A stretch of 37,447 bases of DNA from a virus (lineage: Duplodnaviria; Heunggongvirae; Uroviricota; Caudoviricetes). The DNA lies in IMG/VR virus record IMGVR_UViG_2609459830_000021; one strand, given 5' to 3'. Shown here piece after piece: positions 17,589 through 36,851 of this stretch (position 1 is the stretch's first letter; every line of letters begins with the position of its first letter). The notes under the pieces are model-generated. The model did no database searches and was not told the origin of the DNA. It saw nothing but the letters and a program-made list of their open reading frames with translations. The translations under genes were made by a program, and so were the position numbers.

Positions 17589-17875
17589 GACTTAATCTTC
17601 CCCTCCTTCAGCAATATCGCCTGCGTCCTGATCACGCCTTCCAGGTGGTAAAGTCTGGCGTCGTTGTTGTCGAGAATTCGGGTGCGTCGGTCGATCTCCG
17701 CGTGGCAGTCACTACAAGCCCATGCACCGATCAGGTCGTCAGGCTTCATTCCCGTTCCGCAAATTCCAGCCATCCGGTAATGTGCCAGAACTGTCGTTTC
17801 AGGATTGCCATTGCATACGCCGTAAATCCGTACCTGGCATTCTCTGCCGCGCGCTTCTTTGCGTAGGTTAGCCAT
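17585..17875 (-). CDS. YbcO-like DUF1364 protein (putative zinc-binding nuclease, 96 aa)
   Basis: MANLRKEARGRECQVRIYGVCNGNPETTVLAHYRM…CSDCHAEIDRR resembles DLP12 YbcO as recalled. Confidence 0.65.
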   Translation of the reverse strand: MANLRKEARGRECQVRIYGVCNGNPETTVLAHYRMAGICGTGMKPDDLIGAWACSDCHAEIDRRTRILDNNDARLYHLEGVIRTQAILLKEGKIKS

Positions 17876-18603
17876 TAAGCAGCCTCCCCTGTTACTTTCA
17901 GCATTCCGTTATCGAGCGGCTTTCTGGTCAGCCACTGTTGACCACGCCCGGTGATTTTTGTGGTGAACGAGATCTGTATTCCGTGATTTGTATTGACCGC
18001 TGTTTCTTTCACTGTGAAATAGCCGCGATCCATATATTCCTGCATTGGCACATTGCGCCGGGAACCTGAAGCAATAAGGATTTTGTGATCGCGCATCCAC
18101 GCAAACAGTTTGTTTGGACCAATACCAACAACCTTTGCAAAGTTTCCAATCAAAATTCCGCTGGCCTCGCCAACTCGATCGGCAAACTCAACTTTAGGTG
18201 CTGCGAGAGCAAGCTGTTTCTCCAGTTCAGCCTTCTGGTCTTCAAGGTCGGCCGCAAGGCGCAATGCCTCAGAAAAGGTTTGTGGTATTTTCGCGGTTGC
18301 CCCTTCAAGCTCTCGCCAACGGTCAACAAGACGAGCGGTGAATTCCGGCGACAATTGGGCGACGACAATAATGCTGTCTCGCTTACCTTGTTCGCCTTCG
18401 AAGACGTAAGCCTCGACACTACGGCGCAGTCCTAAGTTATTGATTTTTTCGAAAACCTGCAATGCAGGAAGTTGAATAACTCCAGATTCAGCCAGGCGCT
18501 CTATTGATATTTTTACGTTATCTGGACGACTCCCCACCAACTCAGCGATTTCAATGCTGGTCATTTTGATGATGCTGCTATTTATCAGCTCATTCATTGT
18601 CAT
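17875..18603 (-). CDS. Rha-family regulatory protein with C-terminal antirepressor (ANT/KilAC-like) domain
   Basis: N-terminal …TSIEIAELVGSRPDNVK… Rha-like motif and C-terminal …QEYMDRGYFTVKE… KilAC-like motif (recalled families). Confidence 0.55.
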   Translation of the reverse strand: MTMNELINSSIIKMTSIEIAELVGSRPDNVKISIERLAESGVIQLPALQVFEKINNLGLRRSVEAYVFEGEQGKRDSIIVVAQLSPEFTARLVDRWRELEGATAKIPQTFSEALRLAADLEDQKAELEKQLALAAPKVEFADRVGEASGILIGNFAKVVGIGPNKLFAWMRDHKILIASGSRRNVPMQEYMDRGYFTVKETAVNTNHGIQISFTTKITGRGQQWLTRKPLDNGMLKVTGEAA

Positions 18604-18671: not shown

Positions 18672-19355
18672 TCAGTAGCGATGCAGTGAAGGCGGCAACT
18701 CTTTGTTCTTAAGCCTTTCCCATGCCAGAAGGTTCGTCGGCCCGTCAGGCTCATAAATATCTATATCCCGCGTGTGATTAATTAAAACGCCCCTCGCCCT
18801 CCCGATGATATACGAGAACTCATAGCCGTAGTCGTGGCATATGCCGGAATAGCCAGACTGAATCAGTTTTAATGCGGGATACAACTCACGGAACAATGCC
18901 TGTGAGCGGTTGGCATAATCCCACAGCCATACAAGGCTGTCTGTTTCTTTTGCGGAAAGCCCGTTGGGCTTCTTCTCTTGTTTGCCAGTATTTTTCTCGC
19001 ACTGGCTGAAATAGCAGTCTTCCAGTTTTTCGAACACATCCCACGCCTGATCGGTTTCTAGCATTTTGGCGTGACGGGCTGCGCCTCGTTCTGTCCAGAG
19101 GATGAGGGAGCGAACGTTACGGGCAATTTTCACAGAGTAGTTAAAAGCTACTCTGTGCTTGAACTCACGTAAAGTTTCACCTTCAAGTTTGAAGAAGTGT
19201 TTTTCCTCAATGAAACGACCTTTGTTTTCGTGGTGATTCTGGCGAATACGAATAGCTTCTGTGCCGTAAAGGTGCGCCAAAAGTTCGGTAGTGATAACGG
19301 GGATCTGCTTGTAAGTAATCGTGGAGAGTGTTTCAACAGAGATTTGAGTTGTCAT
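18672..19355 (-). CDS. ORF6N/KilA-N-type domain protein, paralogue A (putative antirepressor, 227 aa)
   Basis: shares [16 protein letters not shown] and [39 protein letters not shown] blocks with paralogue B (20274..20939); C-terminal halves unrelated. Confidence 0.6.
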
Positions 19356-20273: not shown

Positions 20274-20939
20274 TCAGAATTCAAATTGTCTTGCCCGCAG
20301 GCTTTTCAGCATTGGCATGGCCCGCTGGATAACGGAACTTGACATGTCGAGACGTGTTACCTCCCTCAGTAGCGCGTCTCTGTTCTTCGTCACCATGTAG
20401 ATGGTCTCAAACGCAATGTCATACAGCTTGTTCGTGTATGAGGAGTTCAGCTCTTTCATAATGGGATACAGGTGTTTGCTGATGTCCTGGGCTTTTTCCA
20501 TCCAGAGCTGCATGTAGCAAAGGAGGATGATTTCTTCGGCTGTGAATTGTGGCTGAATCTGCGGCTGCTGTTCGGTTGGTGCTGTTTTTCCCTGGCTGAA
20601 ATAGCAGTCTTCCAGTTTTTCGAATACCTCCCACGCCCGATCGGTTTCGAGCATTTTTGCGTGACGGGCTGCGCCGCGTTCTGTCCAGAGGATGAGGGAG
20701 CGGGCATTTTTACCAACTAACCCGATTGTTTCGGGTCTGTTCTTAAACTCGCGTAATTCGTTTTTTTCAATTTTAAAGTAATGCTTTCCGGGCATGAATC
20801 GCGTCGTGTTGTTCAGAAAGTTATCAGAAATGTTTTTGATTTTTGTTCCGTAAAGGTGAGCCAACAGTTCAGTAGTAATTACGGGGATCTGGTTATAGGT
20901 AACAGGGGAAAGGTTTTCGACAGAAATTTGAACAGCCAT
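20274..20939 (-). CDS. ORF6N/KilA-N-type domain protein, paralogue B (putative antirepressor, 221 aa)
   Basis: see paralogue A; ATG at 20939. Confidence 0.6.
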   Translation of the reverse strand: MAVQISVENLSPVTYNQIPVITTELLAHLYGTKIKNISDNFLNNTTRFMPGKHYFKIEKNELREFKNRPETIGLVGKNARSLILWTERGAARHAKMLETDRAWEVFEKLEDCYFSQGKTAPTEQQPQIQPQFTAEEIILLCYMQLWMEKAQDISKHLYPIMKELNSSYTNKLYDIAFETIYMVTKNRDALLREVTRLDMSSSVIQRAMPMLKSLRARQFEF

Positions 20940-21178: not shown

Positions 21179-21281
21179 GTGAGGAATATAGCCCCGAACA
21201 CGCGACGTTGTCAAACTGATGGCATTGCAGATCCCTACGCAATGTAACACTATGTGTTATACATTAATAACGGAACAAAAA

Positions 21282-21652
21282 ATGCGCATTTTTAAAAACG
21301 CCTGGTTTGAGCGATTTGCACGCAAAACAAAATATCCGACCAATCACTGCGCGAAATTGTTAAACAGGCTGATAACGGGCTTATCTCAGCAAACCTGGGT
21401 AACGGCGTTATCAAGCAACGTCTGCCACGAGTCGGTGGCGGCAAATCTGGCGGTTATCGCACAATCATTTTCTATCGCGTCGGCACAAGGGCCTTTTTCG
21501 TATATGCATACGCAAAAAATGAACGTGAAAATATAACCGCTACTGCGGAAAGTGCATTTCGGAAGGCGGCTCCTCACGTACTCAATCTAACAGATGAACA
21601 ACTGGCACAACTGATTCTACAGGGTCAGTTTACGGAGGTACCCAATGAGTAA
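21282..21652 (+). pseudogene. RelE/ParE-superfamily (HigB-like) toxin gene interrupted by a frameshift in an A-run
   Basis: frame a: MRIFKNAWFERFARK… (21282 onward); frame b from ~21325: KISDQSLREIVKQADNGLISANLGNGVIKQRLPRVGGGKSGGYRTIIFYRVGTRAFFVYAYAKNERENI…EVPNE ending TAA 21650-21652; the switch lies in aaaacaaaa (21324-21332). Confidence 0.6.
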
Positions 21653-21962
21653 AAATTACCGCAGTGATGCGCTTGCATCCGTACATGAAATGATGGAATC
21701 GCTTCATGATATCGGCGCAGTAACGAAACAGACTATGCGAGAATTCGATGAAACTTGTCTCCAGCCAGCGCCGGTAATGTCTCCGGAAAGGATCCGTGCA
21801 CTGCGCGAACGAGAGCATCTGTCTCAACCTGTTTTTGCCAGATACCTCAACGTCAGTAAAAACCTGATATCAGACTGGGAACGTGGTGTAAAACGGCCGG
21901 GAGGTGCCGCTCTTCGCCTTCTTTCAGTCGTAGAGAAAAACGGGATCCAGGTAATATCATGA
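21645..21962 (+). CDS. HTH (XRE-type) antitoxin, HigA-like (105 aa)
   Basis: ATG overlaps toxin stop (ATGAGTAA); C-terminal HTH …LSQPVFARYLNVSKNLISDWERGVKRP…; toxin-first order typical of higBA-type modules. Confidence 0.6.
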   Translation: MSKNYRSDALASVHEMMESLHDIGAVTKQTMREFDETCLQPAPVMSPERIRALREREHLSQPVFARYLNVSKNLISDWERGVKRPGGAALRLLSVVEKNGIQVIS

Positions 21963-22012: not shown

Positions 22013-22498
22013 TTAGTTTTGCTGTTCTATTTTAAGCTTGATAGTTTCATACAAAACAATAGTTGCGCCTGTTTTACATAATTCCCGGCTGTCATACGCA
22101 CGAGACCAATAACACAACCAGTTCTCGAGATCTTCTCGAGTATAGGTTTTGCAGGCCAGTCCCTCTGCCATTTCCACGATTTCATCGCCTGGTGCTGTTA
22201 ACTCATAGCCATTCAACAACAAGAAGACATAACCAGCCATCATAGCTGTTCGTTTGTTTGCATTAGCAAATGGATGATTCTGAATCAGACTTTCAATCAA
22301 TACTGATGCCAGTACAAACATGTCATTAGTCTGTTCATACCATCGAACCATGCTGGGACGAGACTGAGAAGAACTTAAATTATCAACACTCAGCACACTA
22401 ACAGGTTCATCTGGTGTTTGAAGCTCAATTAAAAGGCGATTAATTTCGGTAAGATCATCAAACGAAAGGTAGTGCACTCCTTCAACAATCTCAGCCAT
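22013..22498 (-). CDS. doc: Fic/Doc-family toxin (Doc-like, 161 aa from ATG 22498)
   Basis: Fic motif HPFANANKRTAMMAGYVFL (HxFx(D/N)xNKR); ORF track start 22507 is TTG, ATG 22498 preferred. Confidence 0.7.
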   Translation of the reverse strand: MAEIVEGVHYLSFDDLTEINRLLIELQTPDEPVSVLSVDNLSSSQSRPSMVRWYEQTNDMFVLASVLIESLIQNHPFANANKRTAMMAGYVFLLLNGYELTAPGDEIVEMAEGLACKTYTREDLENWLCYWSRAYDSRELCKTGATIVLYETIKLKIEQQN

Positions 22499-22516
22499 AG
22501 AGCACAATACCCATCA

Positions 22517-25374: not shown

Positions 25375-26115
25375 TCACATACCCTGACGTCCAACGTTTG
25401 ACCGCCAGCTCTCCCAGTTAAAATTCACCCAACGACCACCGTTCATGGTCATCCGGTCCATAATCCTCTCACCAAGAAGCGTGCTCATTGCGGCATGATT
25501 CAGGTTTGTCAGCATCCCGACACTGCGCAGTGATGCCGTCCGGCGGTCAACAATCTGGTGCAGTACCACCTGCTCGTTTTTCGTCTCACGCTGGATGCCA
25601 ATTTCGTCAAGAACCAGGAGGTCCACTTCGCACAGTTCACGCAAAAATTTTTCCCCTGACAGTCCGTCGTCATAGCTGGCATGTAACGCGCTCATCACAT
25701 CCGCCACGGTGACCACTATCACGGATTTACCGGCCTTCAGCAGACGATTACCCACAGCCGCCGCCAGATGATTTTTTCCGGTTCCCGGATTCCCGCTGAA
25801 CACGAAGTTTGTATAACCGGTCATCAATTCATCGACAATGGATTTCGCCTGGCTCAGAGCATGGCGCTGACCGTCGTTCTGCACCCGGTAGTTCCCGAAT
25901 GAGCACTTCCTGTGAAGCGGCTGGATGCCCGCACGGTTCAGGATTTTTTCAACCCGCGCCTGATGATTCAGGCGGTTAATTTCCTCGCTGCGCTTACGGC
26001 CCTCAGCCAGTTGCCATTCCCGCCATTCGTCGGTCGTCCGGAACGGTGCTGCCACGTGCGGTGGTGCCAGACGGCGCACCCGTTCAAGAATCCCTCCAGT
26101 CGAAATGTTTTTCAT
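25375..26115 (-). CDS. DnaC-family helicase loader (IstB-like AAA+ ATPase)
   Basis: Walker A FSGNPGTGKNHLA, Walker B LLVLDEIG; position after replication initiator. Confidence 0.8.
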   Translation of the reverse strand: MKNISTGGILERVRRLAPPHVAAPFRTTDEWREWQLAEGRKRSEEINRLNHQARVEKILNRAGIQPLHRKCSFGNYRVQNDGQRHALSQAKSIVDELMTGYTNFVFSGNPGTGKNHLAAAVGNRLLKAGKSVIVVTVADVMSALHASYDDGLSGEKFLRELCEVDLLVLDEIGIQRETKNEQVVLHQIVDRRTASLRSVGMLTNLNHAAMSTLLGERIMDRMTMNGGRWVNFNWESWRSNVGRQGM

Positions 26116-26121
26116 GGCTGA

Positions 26122-27198
26122 TTACCCCCTGAAACCCGGCGGAATTTCGGTGTCCGGTTCAGAAATGTGATTCACGCAACGCAGGCTGACTGCGCCAGCC
26201 TTCGGCAGCGACCACGGATTTTCGAAATTCCTGTTCGGGCCAAAAAACGTCGATGCCTGCTGAACAAATTCAGTTCCCGCTTTCCCGGTAGCCTCCAGGT
26301 ATCTTGCGTAACGCCTCACGCCATCCAGCACGACATCCGGTGACACCCCTTCGCGTAATCTGGCCCTCCAGGCATTGAACGCGGATTTCTTCGGGTTTGA
26401 CCCTGCCCGATGCGGATATTCACGCCAGACCCGTTCGAACACGTCAGGATAATCAACTCGTCCCGCAGACGGTCCCGGCATCGCCCGGGTTAACCCAATC
26501 GGCTTCCCGCTCATCGCGGAATCGGCTTCAGGCTGCTGCGGTTGGCGTTGTTGCTCCGGTTCGACGATCAGCACCTGCTGCACACAACGCCCGGAATCTG
26601 CTTCCGGTGTCGTGCCAGCTGGTCCTGGACGTTCAGTCAGAACAGGACAAAAATCCCCCTGTGGGTCCGTGGCGATTTTTTCGCCATGGACCAGAAGGGT
26701 TTTATCCCTTTCCTGTTCCTGTTCCTGTTCTTGGCTTGAAAGGGGCTCTGAAGGGGCTTCAATTTTCCGACATGATTCACGTCTGACATCCAGGTGGAAA
26801 TCATCCTTATATCTATCATAAAAGGATGATAAAAAAGGATTTTCCAGCAACGCGGAATATTCATTTCTTACCCCAGCACAACGGTTATCGCCAGGTTTCA
26901 GCGATTCACCAACCTGCCATGCTGCCATTTCATGCACCCATACAACCTCAGAATCATGGTCATAGCTGCAAAAACCAGCCTCGCAAGCCATTTGAAGCCC
27001 CTTAGAAGCCCCTTCAGGAGCAAGTCCGGTTTCGTGAGCAATGTACAAAACAGGCAGGTAATAAAGGCCCAGCATATTGGAATGAGGCGAGGTCATCATA
27101 TACAACGCCACTACCATACATTCCGGACCAGACTTCCTTAGTTTTCGCCCTGTATCGCCTAACCAGAACTGAGGTGAAATTGTTGCGTAATTACGCAT
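26122..27198 (-). CDS. replication initiation protein (O-like replisome organiser, 358 aa)
   Basis: position between cII and DnaC-like gene; internal acidic SQEQEQEQE linker encoded by gttcct repeats; C-terminal domain …YPDVFERVWREYPHRAG…. Confidence 0.6.
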   Translation of the reverse strand: MRNYATISPQFWLGDTGRKLRKSGPECMVVALYMMTSPHSNMLGLYYLPVLYIAHETGLAPEGASKGLQMACEAGFCSYDHDSEVVWVHEMAAWQVGESLKPGDNRCAGVRNEYSALLENPFLSSFYDRYKDDFHLDVRRESCRKIEAPSEPLSSQEQEQEQERDKTLLVHGEKIATDPQGDFCPVLTERPGPAGTTPEADSGRCVQQVLIVEPEQQRQPQQPEADSAMSGKPIGLTRAMPGPSAGRVDYPDVFERVWREYPHRAGSNPKKSAFNAWRARLREGVSPDVVLDGVRRYARYLEATGKAGTEFVQQASTFFGPNRNFENPWSLPKAGAVSLRCVNHISEPDTEIPPGFRG

Positions 27199-27361: not shown

Positions 27362-27658
27362 TCAGATATTCATCAGGATTTGCTCAGAACGTCCGGCCCC
27401 AACCGGACGTTTTTTATTTGCATGAACGTTAATGGCATGCTGGAAAGCCCGGCTGATCGGACTGATATCAGATGCCATCTGGAACGCGCATAAAATCGCC
27501 GCGATGTATCGCCAGTCGGTACGACTGACCTTCGATTCATGGCAGCCAATCATCTTTGCCAGTCCCCTTTGCGTCAGAGCTGACAGGTTGATGAGTAAAT
27601 CTGTTTCTGCGCGATCAACGTCACGCTGGGATAGTTTGCTGTAACTTGTTTGTGTCAT
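27362..27658 (-). CDS. cII: CII-like transcriptional activator
   Basis: C-terminus …NKKRPVGAGRSEQILMNI parallels lambda CII …NKKRPAATERSEQIQMEF (from memory); position downstream of cro. Confidence 0.7.
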   Translation of the reverse strand: MTQTSYSKLSQRDVDRAETDLLINLSALTQRGLAKMIGCHESKVSRTDWRYIAAILCAFQMASDISPISRAFQHAINVHANKKRPVGAGRSEQILMNI

Positions 27659-27743: not shown

Positions 27744-27789
27744 TCGCTTTGTCAGCGACGTAGGACGAATGTCCATTGTGAAAAGAGCG
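27744..27789 (-). promoter_or_regulatory. nutR-like site: boxA-like CGCTCTTTT and P22-type boxB hairpin
   Basis: minus-strand CGCTCTTTT (27781-27789) and UCGCUGACAAAGCGA (27744-27758), same GACAA pentaloop hairpin as the nutL boxB upstream of N. Confidence 0.5.
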
Positions 27790-27796
27790 GTGTTAC

Positions 27797-27997
27797 TTAT
27801 GCAGTTGTTTTTTTGTTACTTGGGAAGGGCTTTATTTCTTCCGCATAAACGCTTCCATCAGCGTTTATAGTTAAAAAAATCTTTCGGCCTGCATGAATGG
27901 CCTTGTTAATCGCGCTTTGATATACGCCGAGATCTTTAGCCGTCTTGGTTTGCCCAAAGCGTATTGCATAATCTTTCAGGGTTATGCGTTGTTCCAT
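27797..27997 (-). CDS. cro: Cro repressor (66 aa), lambda-type
   Basis: [66 protein letters not shown] is essentially lambda Cro as recalled. Confidence 0.95.
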
Positions 27998-28023
27998 ACA
28001 ACCTCCTTAGTACATGCAACCAT

Positions 28024-28087
28024 TATCACCGCTAGAGGTAAAATAGTCAACACGCAAGGTGTTAGATATTTATCCCTTGCGGTGATA
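28024..28087. promoter_or_regulatory. OR1-OR2-OR3 operators with divergent PR/PRM
   Basis: 17-mers tatcaccgctagaggta (28024-28040), caacacgcaaggtgtta (28048-28064), tatcccttgcggtgata (28071-28087); lambda-like with single-base differences in OR1 and OR2 relative to recalled lambda sequence. Confidence 0.85.
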
Positions 28088-28094
28088 GATTTAA

Positions 28095-28811
<717 letters not shown>

Positions 28812-28842
28812 TTGTTTTATTTTTCACGTAATAGGATGATTT

Positions 28843-29604
28843 ATGACACAGTTTCAACTTGCATTAATCGCTAGAGAAGTTGATGGAGAAGTCATCCATC
28901 TTCGCACCAAAGACGGATACATCAATGCCACCGCGATGTGCAAGTCTGCGGGGAAGCTACTTGCTGACTATACACGACTAAAAACAACACAAGATTTTTT
29001 TGATGAATTATCACGCGATATGGGGATTCCCATATCGGAGTTAATTCAATCATTTAAAGGCGGAAGAGCAGAGAATCAAGGGACTTGGGTTCATCCAGAC
29101 ATCGCAATTAATTTAGCTCAGTGGCTATCTCCAAAATTTGCAGTGCAAGTATCGAGATGGGTGCGTGAGTGGATGTCAGGTGAAAGAGCGCCTGCCGAAC
29201 TCCCTATCCACCTTAAGCGGTATATGACAAACCGAGGCAGAGTTCCTCATACGCACTTTTCTATGCTTAATGAACTGACGTTTAACTTGGTTGCGCCACT
29301 TGAACAGGCCGGATATACGCTGCCAGAAAAAATGGTCCCTGATATTTCAGAGGGTAGGGTTTTCTCGCAATGGCTCCGTGACAACCGGGGGGTTGAGCCG
29401 AAGACATTCCCAACATATAACCATGAGTACCCAGATGGCCGGACATTCCCGGTACGTCTATACCCAAACGAATATCTTGCAGATTTCAAACAACACTTCA
29501 ACGAAGTGTGGCTGCCTCAGTACGCTCCTAAATATTTTGCTGAACGAGACCAAAGGGCATTGACGTTGATTGAGAAAATCATGCTACCTGACCTTGATTC
29601 CTAA
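28843..29604 (+). CDS. KilA-N domain protein (253 aa) occupying the rexAB position downstream of cI
   Basis: N-terminal ~110 aa resembles KilA-N/APSES-type domain (…HLRTKDGYINATAMCKSAGKLLADYTRLKTTQDFFDEL…WVHPDIAINLAQWLSPKFAVQVSRWV…); C-terminal ~140 aa unassigned; 32 nt after cI stop, same strand. Confidence 0.6.
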   Translation: MTQFQLALIAREVDGEVIHLRTKDGYINATAMCKSAGKLLADYTRLKTTQDFFDELSRDMGIPISELIQSFKGGRAENQGTWVHPDIAINLAQWLSPKFAVQVSRWVREWMSGERAPAELPIHLKRYMTNRGRVPHTHFSMLNELTFNLVAPLEQAGYTLPEKMVPDISEGRVFSQWLRDNRGVEPKTFPTYNHEYPDGRTFPVRLYPNEYLADFKQHFNEVWLPQYAPKYFAERDQRALTLIEKIMLPDLDS

Positions 29605-29612
29605 ATGTTATT

Positions 29613-29635
29613 CCCGGCCACAGAGCCGGGTTTTC
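29613..29635 (+). terminator. Rho-independent terminator after KilA-N gene (t-imm-like)
   Basis: cccggccacagagccggg followed by ttttctttg. Confidence 0.6.
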
Positions 29636-29790
29636 TTTGCCTCACCCCCCCACCTAAAGACACATAACCAAATGTATTTATTGAAAAATAAATAGATACA
29701 ACTCACTAAACATCGCAATTCAGATCTCTCGATCACCTCCCAAGCCACTCAACCCTGCAAAAAATAAATCCATATAAAAAACATACAGAT

Positions 29791-29853
29791 AACCATCTGC
29801 GGTGATAAATTATCTCTGGCGGTGTTGACATAAATACCACTGGCGGTGATACT
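29791..29853 (+). promoter_or_regulatory. OL3-OL2-OL1 operators and PL promoter
   Basis: aaccatctgcggtgata, tatctctggcggtgttg, taccactggcggtgata; -35 TTGACA (29825-29830), -10 GATACT (29848-29853); matches lambda PL/OL as recalled. Confidence 0.9.
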
Positions 29854-29921
29854 AAACACATCAGCAGGACGCACTACTCACCAGGGCGGTGAATATACAA
29901 CGATTCAAATATGAATCTACG

Positions 29922-29936
29922 GCGCTGACAAAGCGC
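29922..29936 (+). promoter_or_regulatory. nutL boxB hairpin, P22-type (GCGCUGACAAAGCGC)
   Basis: 5-bp stem with GACAA pentaloop in PL leader; no clear boxA found by eye. Confidence 0.55.
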
Positions 29937-30101
29937 AATAACCAAAGTGAACTTTGGGGTGTGGTGAAGGGTTCATGGACGGGAATATGTCGCACGTAAA
30001 GCGGCGAGGCCTGCGGGACTATTGCCGAATTGAAGTAGGCCGAAACAGGTCGAAATGGGTCTCCCACCTACCACACCACCAAAGTTCATCAGGAGGTCTA
30101 T

Positions 30102-30485
30102 ATGACACGCAGAACTCAGTTCAAAGGCAATTCACGTTCTCGTCGTCGTGAGCGTTTAAAGGCAAAGGCATTAGCTAACGGCGTGCTGGCCCGCGAAGAA
30201 GCAATAAGTTCAGAAGTATTACACCGCCCTACTCTAAGCAGAGCGCAGATTCAGGCTAAAGGTACTCACGAAACGCCTGAGCGCATAGAAGACGCTAAGC
30301 CAATTAAGTTCATGGCACAGGACGTGATCTGGCAACAGAAAGAATACAGACGCAATCTGGAGCGAGCAGCCATTGTGTACGCGAATGAGTTTGGACATAA
30401 GCAACCAGAAACTGGTGTATGTCTTCCAAACGTAGCCATTTACGCGGCAGGCTACCGGAAATCAAAACAACTGACGGCGAGGTGA
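30102..30485 (+). CDS. N: N-type antiterminator, P22 gene 24-like (127 aa)
   Basis: N-terminal arginine-rich motif NSRSRRRERLKAKA; C-terminus …LPNVAIYAAGYRKSKQLTAR parallels P22 gp24 …LPGVALYAAGHRKSKQITAR (from memory); AGGAGG RBS. Confidence 0.75.
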   Translation: MTRRTQFKGNSRSRRRERLKAKALANGVLAREEAISSEVLHRPTLSRAQIQAKGTHETPERIEDAKPIKFMAQDVIWQQKEYRRNLERAAIVYANEFGHKQPETGVCLPNVAIYAAGYRKSKQLTAR

Positions 30486-30488
30486 TTG

Positions 30489-31202
30489 ATGACCACGCCT
30501 TCAGTTTTGCCGCAAAAGTTATGGCGTCCGCTTGCAGAGATTAAAAACTTCGTTGAAAAAATGCCTGATGGAGTTCGCCTTACGGAAGTTACTAAAAAAG
30601 TTAAGACATTTGCCGAACTGTCAGGAAAGGAGAGAAACCAGCTCATAGATTTTATCGATAAACGGGAAAGCATCATTGTATTTAAGGTCAGAAAAGAAGG
30701 TTCTGGTAACGGAGTAACCTTTTTACGCTACAAAAAATATGGATATCCCAAGCGGGAAGGAAACGTCACAATCATTAAGGACCTTCAATCAAAATTATGT
30801 ACCAGATGCGGGCAGACAAAATCAGTCAATGATTTTTATTCAGATGCCAGCAAGCGTGACGGGAGAGCCATTTATTGCAAGAAGTGCGAATCTGCAATGA
30901 AACGCTCACGCAGAGAATGCAACAAATTAATTCTGCAACAACAGGAACCTGAAATGAATAACCTCAAAGCAGTTTCACCTTCACCAGAAATACTCAGAAA
31001 ACAGGCTGAAGAATTGCTGAAAGCCGCCGAAATTGCGGAGAAAAAACGCCAGGAAGATGATGCATTCAACAAAAAACTTGCGCCCTTAAAACTTGAAATC
31101 CTTCAGGCCGCCGGAAAAATGCAGCTTAAACTGGACGAATTCATCGACTGTATGGATGAAATGAATAAAGCAGTTCAGAAGCTTAAAGAGCTGACCGCCT
31201 GA
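30489..31202 (+). CDS. hypothetical early-left protein with CxxC…CxxC zinc-ribbon-like motif and coiled-coil C-terminus (237 aa)
   Basis: CTRCGQTK…YCKKCES; GAGGTGA RBS; ORF track TTG start at 30486 moved to ATG 30489. Confidence 0.5.
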   Translation: MTTPSVLPQKLWRPLAEIKNFVEKMPDGVRLTEVTKKVKTFAELSGKERNQLIDFIDKRESIIVFKVRKEGSGNGVTFLRYKKYGYPKREGNVTIIKDLQSKLCTRCGQTKSVNDFYSDASKRDGRAIYCKKCESAMKRSRRECNKLILQQQEPEMNNLKAVSPSPEILRKQAEELLKAAEIAEKKRQEDDAFNKKLAPLKLEILQAAGKMQLKLDEFIDCMDEMNKAVQKLKELTA

Positions 31203-31233
31203 TATTAATAAATTGCAACTACCGGAGTTAACT

Positions 31234-31593
31234 ATGAATGAAACAGAACTGAAGCACATTATCGCCCTGCTTCTGGAAGATGCCAGACAGGTTTATCGAC
31301 TTAGCCCAAATTCCGCAACGCAGGAACGCATCCGGATAGCGGAAACAGCACTGAAACAGGACAATGGAAACGGCATATCCAAATTTAGCGCCGCCAGTGA
31401 AAATGAAGTAATAGAAATAAACAGCAATATCAGCGATAGTTGCGTCGCTTACAGCCACCAAATAATTCGTGTAAGCGCAAGAATAATGGAAGTGATGGCA
31501 AGTGAGCTTGAAAAGAACAACATCAAGCCCACTGATTGTTGTTTAAGAACCGTAATGAACGTTATTTATTACTCGATGTTCCGAAGTCGCTAA
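31234..31593 (+). CDS. hypothetical early-left protein (119 aa from ATG 31234)
   Basis: GGAG RBS 7 nt upstream of ATG; ORF track start 31213 is TTG. Confidence 0.45.
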   Translation: MNETELKHIIALLLEDARQVYRLSPNSATQERIRIAETALKQDNGNGISKFSAASENEVIEINSNISDSCVAYSHQIIRVSARIMEVMASELEKNNIKPTDCCLRTVMNVIYYSMFRSR

Positions 31594-32523: not shown

Positions 32524-32910
32524 ATGAAAGAACTTGCGCAAAATGAAATATTTTCCGAAACCAGTCCTGATGCAATAAATGAACTCAAAGAAATTGCAGA
32601 ACGCATCAGTAAAATATGCAAAGAATACAAAATCGACTTTGTATTTTCTTTTTCAGTGCTTACAGAAGTTGGAAATAACGAATATAAAGACAGTCGTTTG
32701 GTTTCATGTGGGTTAAATGGCAAAACACCAAGCCCATATATTCATGCTGCATGTGAAGTCGTCAGAAGCAACATTGGAGCACAACAAATCCATACACTGG
32801 CGCAGGCTCTTGAATTTGCAAGAGAAAATTCTGAGTGCGACTGCTCTGAATGCCAGCACGAAAAGGGAAAAACAACTCACAAAACAGCAAACCAGGCAAC
32901 CTTCCACTGA
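32524..32910 (+). CDS. hypothetical protein (128 aa) with C-terminal CDCSEC motif
   Basis: ATG start; no family recognised. Confidence 0.4.
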   Translation: MKELAQNEIFSETSPDAINELKEIAERISKICKEYKIDFVFSFSVLTEVGNNEYKDSRLVSCGLNGKTPSPYIHAACEVVRSNIGAQQIHTLAQALEFARENSECDCSECQHEKGKTTHKTANQATFH

Positions 32911-35388: not shown

Positions 35389-36174
35389 ATGAGTACAGCA
35401 CTCGCAACGCTGGCAGGGAAGCTGGCTGAACGTGTCGGCATGGATTCTGTCGACCCACAGGAACTAATCACCACTCTTCGCCAGACGGCATTTAAAGGTG
35501 ATGCCAGCGATGCGCAATTTATCGCATTGTTGATCGTCGCCAACCAGTACGGCCTTAATCCCTGGACGAAAGAAATTTACGCCTTCCCTGACAAGCAGAA
35601 CGGCATCGTTCCGGTGGTTGGCGTTGATGGCTGGTCCCGCATTATCAATGAAAACCAGCAGTTTGATGGCATGGACTTTGAGCAGGACAATGAGTCCTGT
35701 ACATGCCGGATTTACCGCAAAGATCGCAATCACCCGATCTGCGTTACCGAGTGGATGGATGAATGTCGCCGCGCACCATTCAAAACCCGCGAAGGCAGAG
35801 AAATCACCGGACCGTGGCAGTCGCATCCCAAACGGATGTTACGGCACAAAGCCATGATTCAGTGTGCTCGCCTGGCCTTCGGATTTGCTGGCATCTATGA
35901 CAAGGATGAAGCCGAGCGTATTGTCGAAAATACTGCATATACTACAGAACGTCAGCCGGAACGCGACATCACCCCGGTTAACGAAGAAACCATGTCGGAA
36001 ATTAACGCCCTTCTTACTTCCATGGAAAAAACGTGGGATGACGACCTGTTGCCGCTCTGTTCCCAGATTTTTCGCCGCAACATTTACACATCTTCAGAAC
36101 TAACACAGGCTGAAGCTGTGAAGGTTCTTGGATTCCTGAAACAGAAAGTCACAGAGCAGAAGGTAGCAGCATGA
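35389..36174 (+). CDS. bet: Bet (Red-beta single-strand annealing protein, 261 aa)
   Basis: [66 protein letters not shown]… matches lambda Beta as recalled. Confidence 0.95.
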
Positions 36175-36851
36175 CACCGGACATTATCCTGCAACGTACA
36201 GGGATCGACGTGAGAGCTGTCGAACAGGGGGATGATGCGTGGCACAAATTACGGCTCGGCGTCATCACCGCTTCAGAAGTTCACAACGTGATAGCAAAAC
36301 CCCGCTCAGGAAAGAAATGGCCTGACATGAAAATGTCCTACTTCCACACCCTGCTGGCTGAGGTTTGCACCGGTGTGGCTCCGGAAGTTAACGCTAAAGC
36401 GCTGGCCTGGGGAAAACAGTACGAGAACGACGCCAGAGCCCTCTTTGAGTTCACTTCCGGCGTGAATGTTACTGAATCCCCGATCATCTATCGCGACGAA
36501 AGTATGCGCACCGCCTGCTCTCCCGATGGTTTATGCAGTGACGGCAACGGCCTTGAACTGAAATGCCCGTTTACCTCCCGGGATTTCATGAAATTCCGGC
36601 TCGGTGGTTTCGAGGCCATAAAGTCGGCTTACATGGCCCAGGTGCAGTACAGCATGTGGGTGACGCGAAAAGATGCCTGGTACTTTGCCAACTATGACCC
36701 GCGTATGAAGCGTGAAGGCCTGCATTATGTCGTGGTCGAACGGGATGAAAAATACATGGAGGTTTTTGACGAAATGGTACCGGAGTTCATCGAAAAAATG
36801 GACGAGGCACTGGCTGAAATTGGTTTTGTATTTGGGGAGCAATGGCGATAG
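36171..36851 (+). CDS. exo: Exo (lambda exonuclease, 226 aa)
   Basis: [65 protein letters not shown]… matches lambda Exo as recalled. Confidence 0.95.

Follow-up and report, generated by a model that had tools for sequence, protein, structure and literature searches.

A predicted BstA-family gene in the position of rexAB within a lambda-type immunity region of a tailed phage

The window, that is, the whole 37,447-nucleotide stretch of tailed-phage DNA analysed here (IMG/VR record IMGVR_UViG_2609459830_000021), contains a lambda-type immunity region in reverse orientation, as read from its list of open reading frames (ORFs). On the minus strand lie a DnaC-type gene (25375-26115), an O-like gene (26122-27198), cII (27362-27658) and cro (27797-27997). 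The cI repressor gene is on the plus strand (28098-28811), and its 237-aa product is of the lambda immunity type; the same cI protein at related loci carries the Pfam domains HTH_3 and Peptidase_S24. The right operator consists of OR1 (28024-28040), OR2 (28048-28064) and OR3 (28071-28087). A promoter scan placed a PR-like promoter at 28050-28022 on the minus strand; PRM would be expected within the OR region from the lambda layout, the simple scan itself having detected no PRM. OL3, OL2, OL1 and PL occupy 29791-29853 (+), with PL (TTGACA-17-GATACT) at 29825-29853 in the scan. The first-pass annotation called cI, cro and the operators nearly identical to those of lambda, and this holds: cI agrees with lambda cI at 235 of 237 residues and Cro at 64 of 66, OL1-3 and OR3 are exact, and OR1 and OR2 are each one base off. 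The gene for the N antiterminator (127-aa type; ORF at 30102-30485, +) forms the far border of the cI-N slot. The same N gene matches Pfam PF25694 N_peptide at a related locus (L005) and is annotated as N in phage PhiR5_2, which is 99.9% identical to the window over 28000-30100; a literature search found no paper mentioning PhiR5_2.

Positions 1-25000 of the window have their best matches (91-94%) in the Stx-type short-tailed lambdoid phages POCJ13, phiSTEC1589-Stx1c and Min27, and the phage is thus a 933W-like mosaic with lambda immunity. Three antirepressor-type genes lie on the minus strand, at 17875-18603, 18672-19355 and 20274-20939; one has an ANT/KilA-C domain and two combine ORF6N with P22_AR_C, and both of the latter weakly match the PADLOC candidate PDC-S05. 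A small gene pair on the plus strand (21219-21536 and 21645-21962) encodes a weakly RelE/HigB-like toxin and an HTH_3 antitoxin-like protein, and its counterparts in PhiR5_2 are annotated HigB and HigA. Between the replication and antirepressor genes, an ORF at 22013-22507 (-) has a Fic/DOC family domain (Pfam E=3e-11) and no PADLOC match. Downstream of N, the plus-strand ORFs 30486-31202, 31213-31593 and 32524-32910 are without Pfam or PADLOC matches; paired CxxC motifs occur in the first (238 aa), and all three are conserved beside the 127-aa N in related prophages.

The interval directly downstream of cI is where the window departs from lambda. BLASTN aligns window 27783-28812 with lambda 38255-37226 (96.7%) and window 29613-29892 with lambda 35824-35550 (88.9%). 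Only these flanks match, and the 800 bp between them (28813-29612, +) are therefore a replacement cassette standing in for lambda 37225-35825, which comprises the cI-rexA spacer, rexA and rexB. The downstream matching block starts at the terminator, one base beyond the rexB coding sequence (lambda 35825-36259). The cassette shows no homology to RexA or RexB: by BLASTN it has no lambda match, and no Rex family appeared in the Pfam, PADLOC and PHROG scans.

The cassette holds one bstA-like gene of 253 codons (28843-29604, +, ATG start, stop included). A 31-nt spacer (28812-28842, +) with an AGGA ribosome-binding site separates it from cI, and a terminator scan found no terminator-like site on the plus strand between the two genes. 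Behind the gene lies an intrinsic terminator (29613-29640, +), composed of a hairpin (29613-29630) and a T-run, CCCGGCCACAGAGCCGGG then TTTTCTTTGC; placed at the start of the downstream block that matches lambda, it is the counterpart of the lambda terminator behind rexB. The BLASTN gap and the ORF bear out the earlier statement that a single gene fills the rexA-rexB slot, on the same strand as cI and before the terminator. The span first given for it, 28843-29635, is correct at its start and too long at its end, since the gene stops at 29604 and position 29635 takes in the hairpin and T-run.

The cI-N slot is known to vary. Among lambda-immunity phages, cargo between identical flanks includes rexAB, hicAB (mEp234, HK106), HK97 gp48/gp49 and unnamed genes (HK244, HK542, HK544, CL707). 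The window shares with mEp234, HK106, HK97, HK244, HK542, HK544 and CL707 the same flanks with swapped cargo, but differs from them in gene content, as none of these phages has a KilA-N/BstA_C gene. Relative to lambda RexA-RexB, the window gene occupies exactly the same slot, from the cI stop codon to the post-rexB terminator, and presumably the same lysogen transcripts, and by homology its outcome class would also be abortive infection. The two show no sequence kinship, however: the window gene encodes one predicted soluble DNA-binding protein, whereas RexAB is a sensor plus a membrane protein, and the reported target of the BstA family is phage DNA replication, whereas that of RexAB is membrane potential.

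The 253-aa protein has two domains. Its N-terminal part is a KilA-N DNA-binding domain (residues 13-112, window 28879-29178, +), matched by Pfam at E=8.2e-27 and 93.6 bits against a cut-off of 23.8 bits, in agreement with the KilA-N-like domain read from the letters at first. The C-terminal half, approximately residues 120-251 (29200-29595, +), is a BstA_C domain according to Pfam (PF26567), PADLOC, BLASTP and hhalign. The first-pass annotation had left this half as an unassigned domain of about 140 aa and proposed a Pfam search; the search confirmed KilA-N, and precomputed Pfam results for the exact protein list both PF04383 KilA-N and PF26567 BstA_C. The PADLOC BstA profile matches residues 120-237 (E=2.5e-20), covering only profile positions 149-271 of 292 and scoring 70.8 bits vs 412 bits for the BstA of Salmonella prophage BTP1. 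The protein is also matched over its full length (residues 1-252, E=1.8e-82) by PHROG 6287, "BstA abortive infection system, replication inhibitor". No NCBIfam model exists for it, and no relative of the BstA_C fold has a solved structure.

Direct comparison with BTP1 BstA points the same way. BLASTP aligns residues 133-251 with residues 171-302 of BTP1 BstA at 29% identity (E=5e-15) and finds no N-terminal similarity. Profile-profile comparison by hhalign, with 36 homologues of the window protein set against 31 homologues of BTP1 BstA, gives 97.8% probability (E=1e-12) over 231 columns, of which the N-terminal part is of low confidence. The residues that are invariant in each clade coincide in the alignments: P135, S140, E144, D167, S169, G171, W177, H194, P197, Y207-P208 and F215 of the window protein correspond to P173, S178, E182, D204, S206, G208, W215, H232, P235, Y251-P252 and F259 of BTP1 BstA. 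BTP1 BstA itself has no Pfam KilA-N match at all, and its homologues carry PF26567 only, some under the name "BstA-like C-terminal domain-containing protein". The textbook KilA-N domain, the similarity restricted to the C-terminal domain and the partial PADLOC coverage therefore indicate a sister clade to BstA with the same two-domain plan. On sequence criteria, the 253-aa protein is a diverged BstA-family member from a clade with a canonical KilA-N domain.

BstA has been characterized in some detail (Owen et al. 2021, PMC8585504). In BTP1, bstA is located downstream of cI and is highly expressed in lysogeny. The protein protects at the population level via abortive infection; it co-localises with phage DNA, and phage DNA replication is blocked. 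It is active on lambda, phi80, P1 and T7, and not on T4 or T5. Defence has been shown directly for three homologues, from BTP1, Klebsiella pneumoniae and Escherichia coli NCTC10963, and a small group of homologues is similar to BstA in the C-terminal region only. The common position of BstA and RexAB was already pointed out there, and the slot was described as a hotspot of mosaic diversity (PMC8585504, citing Degnan et al. 2007).

The window gene resembles BTP1 bstA in layout as well as in domain plan. In both, a KilA-N or KilA-N-like domain precedes BstA_C, with the invariant BstA_C residues in common; both are single genes directly 3' of the repressor, on the same strand, with a Rho-independent terminator before PL and N; and both have Gram-negative prophages as hosts. 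They differ in length (253 vs 307 aa), in sequence (the 29% identity being confined to the C-terminal domain), in the N-terminus, which is a compact canonical Pfam KilA-N in the window protein and a longer diverged version in BTP1, and at the gene start, where the window lacks flanking CCCGCC-type aba repeats. The earlier proposal of a lysogen-expressed defence or exclusion candidate thereby gains support from homology to a characterized abortive-infection protein in the same position behind cI. The mechanism, which was first described as unknown, has a published family phenotype: a block of phage DNA replication together with aba self-immunity.

The KilA-N domain also allows a different reading, in which the protein would act on other prophages or on host genes as an antirepressor or transcription regulator of the KilA-N type (compare P1 KilA and the Bro/Ant family) and would abort no infections. 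The strong canonical KilA-N domain fits such a role, PHROG 129 ("transcriptional regulator") matches residues 13-116 (E=8e-24), KilA-N proteins are labelled regulator or antirepressor in many phage records, and the N-terminal domain of the tested BstA proteins is more diverged. However, these database labels come from the domain name and not from experiments, and the C-terminal half is BstA_C rather than the ANT/KilA-C or P22_AR_C domains present in three other window genes; a Pfam search at E<=1 found no ANT or P22_AR_C match in the 253-aa protein, only KilA-N. It would also make little sense for a lysogen to produce an antirepressor from the operon of the repressor itself. A regulatory role of this kind is unlikely. 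KilA-N/APSES proteins more generally (yeast Mbp1 and Bqt4; phage P1 KilA) differ from the window protein in their C-terminal partner domain and biological role.

The gene is widespread in closely similar form and is conserved as a protein. In the assembly collection, 2229 blocks contain the exact 253-aa protein. An S24 repressor lies directly upstream on the same strand in all eight related places shown, seven with lambda cI and one (L012) with an unrelated repressor; the seven lambda-cI places have either lambda O/P with lambda N or the DnaC-type module with the 127-aa N. At another locus (L095) the identical protein stands behind a third repressor type, also S24. Similarity between the window and L012 begins about 40 bp upstream of the ATG and includes TTGGGTGA, which are the last bases of lambda cI and are intergenic in L012; it stops just past the terminator, where the stem is kept and three loop bases differ. 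The gene thus travels as a cassette behind different repressors. It is also under strong purifying selection: it differs from L012 at 29 positions and from L095 at 28, and every difference is synonymous. These two independent comparisons, with 57 synonymous and 0 non-synonymous differences, therefore show a real gene and not a chance ORF.

The same counts bear on whether the gene might be a decaying or silent passenger with no current function, as could be suspected from records that annotate it only as hypothetical or "KilA-N domain-containing protein". Against that stand the substitution pattern, 55 invariant columns in the alignment of 36 homologues, the abundance of the exact protein in the collection, and an intact ribosome-binding site and terminator. 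The passenger reading is hardly credible; judged from the sequences compared, the substitution pattern effectively refutes it.

Further copies extend the picture. Proteus phage vB_BPM-V3 has an 80%-identical copy directly behind cI. A homologue occurs in 139 of 5426 complete E. coli genomes, and an E. coli variant of 257 aa with ~78% nucleotide identity is found in ~117 complete E. coli genomes (for example, L094 3468-4241 and L003 3001-3774); its copy in vB_EcoS-673R7 shows 86.5% protein identity. This variant sits near hokD, in the interval from the replication genes to Q; it is on the strand opposite to its neighbours and therefore needs its own promoter.

The clade as a whole extends far beyond enterobacterial prophages. 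A scan of one genome per species found a relative in 365 species, and members 53-60% identical occur in Proteobacteria, Verrucomicrobiota, Bacteroidota, Planctomycetota, Spirochaetia, Nitrospirota and candidate-phyla bacteria. The immediate upstream neighbour is an S24 repressor in 3 of 52 loci of this species scan; neighbours of other kinds include IS transposases, AbiTii, a Schlafen-type protein and, at seven Stenotrophomonas loci, aceK. The prophage-immunity position is true of enterobacterial members and is not a rule for the clade. In the seven Stenotrophomonas genomes (L036, L038, L042, L045, L049, L053, L058), aceK adjoins the KilA-N/BstA_C gene in divergent orientation, which suggests a fixed site in the chromosome rather than a prophage one. 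The BstA_C domain on its own is found in 416 cluster representatives (E<=0.001) among 1.84 billion, mostly proteins of 230-300 aa with the domain at the C-terminus. BstA_C-like stretches also occur in three very long proteins (P0268, P0312 and P0346; 1230, 1770 and 1656 aa), in two of them mid-protein, which suggests domain fusions to other modules.

This distribution is one of the points raised for a role in lysogenic conversion, with the protein acting on host physiology or virulence, as first proposed for BTP1 st313-td, and phage defence being incidental. The clade is 53-60% identical across many phyla and often sits outside recognisable prophage immunity regions, and the BTP1 homologue is annotated ST313-td in its record, a name that recalls virulence phenotypes to which the gene was earlier tied (PMC8585504). 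However, no mechanism was ever offered for the virulence link, whereas BstA defence was shown directly for three homologues (PMC8585504), and the cI-N slot repeatedly holds exclusion or toxin-antitoxin cargo (rexAB in lambda; hicAB in mEp234 and HK106). Such a conversion role is very improbable.

Against the BstA reading it can be said that the similarity to tested BstA proteins is confined to the C-terminal domain, and that outside Enterobacterales the clade is mostly not beside a repressor, with the E. coli variant (117 genomes) elsewhere in the prophage. There is a small but real chance that the canonical-KilA-N/BstA_C clade is functionally distinct from BstA rather than one more version of it. 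The 53-60% identity across phyla, the usual siting outside immunity regions and the lack of a recognisable aba at the gene start mean that a distinct trigger, self-immunity or role could apply, and some probability is kept on a distinct role mainly because the immunity position is not clade-wide. If this were true, the protein might sense another trigger through its different DNA-binding domain, have another form of self-immunity or none, or serve a non-defence role. A literature search found no paper testing KilA-N/BstA_C proteins of the canonical-KilA-N clade.

Self-immunity in the characterized system depends on aba, a DNA element of 63 bp that begins and ends with CCCGCC and spares the carrier prophage. 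In BTP1 it reaches from 29 bp upstream of bstA to 34 bp into the gene, and each BstA homologue has a cognate aba (PMC8585504). A search for 6-mer direct and inverted repeats from -90 to +90 around the gene start covered the window, L012, two phage homologues and BTP1 as a control. It recovered the CCGCCA pair of BTP1 and found no aba-like terminal direct repeat pair around the window gene start. The upstream sequence of the gene is not conserved among homologues. Since aba elements are homologue-specific, the missing repeat pair does not count against the BstA model, and sequence alone cannot decide the matter.

Two candidate elements within the gene were rejected. A 7-bp inverted repeat from +11 to +41 (TCAACTT/AAGTTGA) looks conserved in close relatives and shifts register between them. 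Nor does the 5' segment that holds it behave as a conserved structure: across 81 homologues the median stability percentile is 0.65, with 5% of loci in the lowest decile. Codons 37-102 contain no synonymous changes between the window and L012, as an embedded DNA element might; L095, however, has 8 changes there and diverged homologues show near-normal synonymous divergence, and the stretch is most likely a recombination patch.

Taken with its position, the homology favours, at a probability of roughly three in four, a diverged BstA-family abortive-infection protein carried as a cassette in the variable cI-N slot that holds rexAB in lambda. The function of the window protein rests on homology and gene position, and the proposed working is as follows. 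In the lysogen, the bstA-like gene would be transcribed together with cI from the repressor promoter, and the transcript would end at the terminator that follows rexB in lambda; we infer this co-transcription because the spacer measures 31 nt, the gene has a ribosome-binding site of its own and no terminator intervenes. The N-terminal KilA-N domain, judging by its fold, would bind DNA. When another phage infects and lytic replication begins, the protein would go to the replicating phage DNA, and the BstA_C domain would stop its replication, so that the infected cell dies and releases no progeny, which protects the clonal population. The replication block and cell death are transferred by homology, being shown only for the BstA proteins of BTP1, Klebsiella pneumoniae and Escherichia coli NCTC10963. 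An induced carrier prophage would escape its own protein through a putative cognate aba-like DNA element in or next to the gene start.

This is no new kind of system: the family, the C-terminal domain, the phenotype and the rexAB parallel have been in the literature since 2021 and are by now covered by Pfam, PADLOC and PHROGs. The survey indicates that the BstA family includes a large clade with a textbook KilA-N domain. Its members are labelled "hypothetical protein" (as in PhiR5_2) or "KilA-N domain-containing protein" (as in RefSeq), and so name-based surveys of RefSeq and GenBank miss the clade. What is new is a predicted member from a sister clade of the known BstA kind, and with it a candidate tractable model in a lambda background. 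It places a BstA-type gene in the best-understood immunity region, with lambda cI, Cro and operators, in a phage that grows on E. coli K-12. Such a background would be convenient for two questions arising from the BstA work, namely the trigger of the protein and the way in which a short DNA element silences it.
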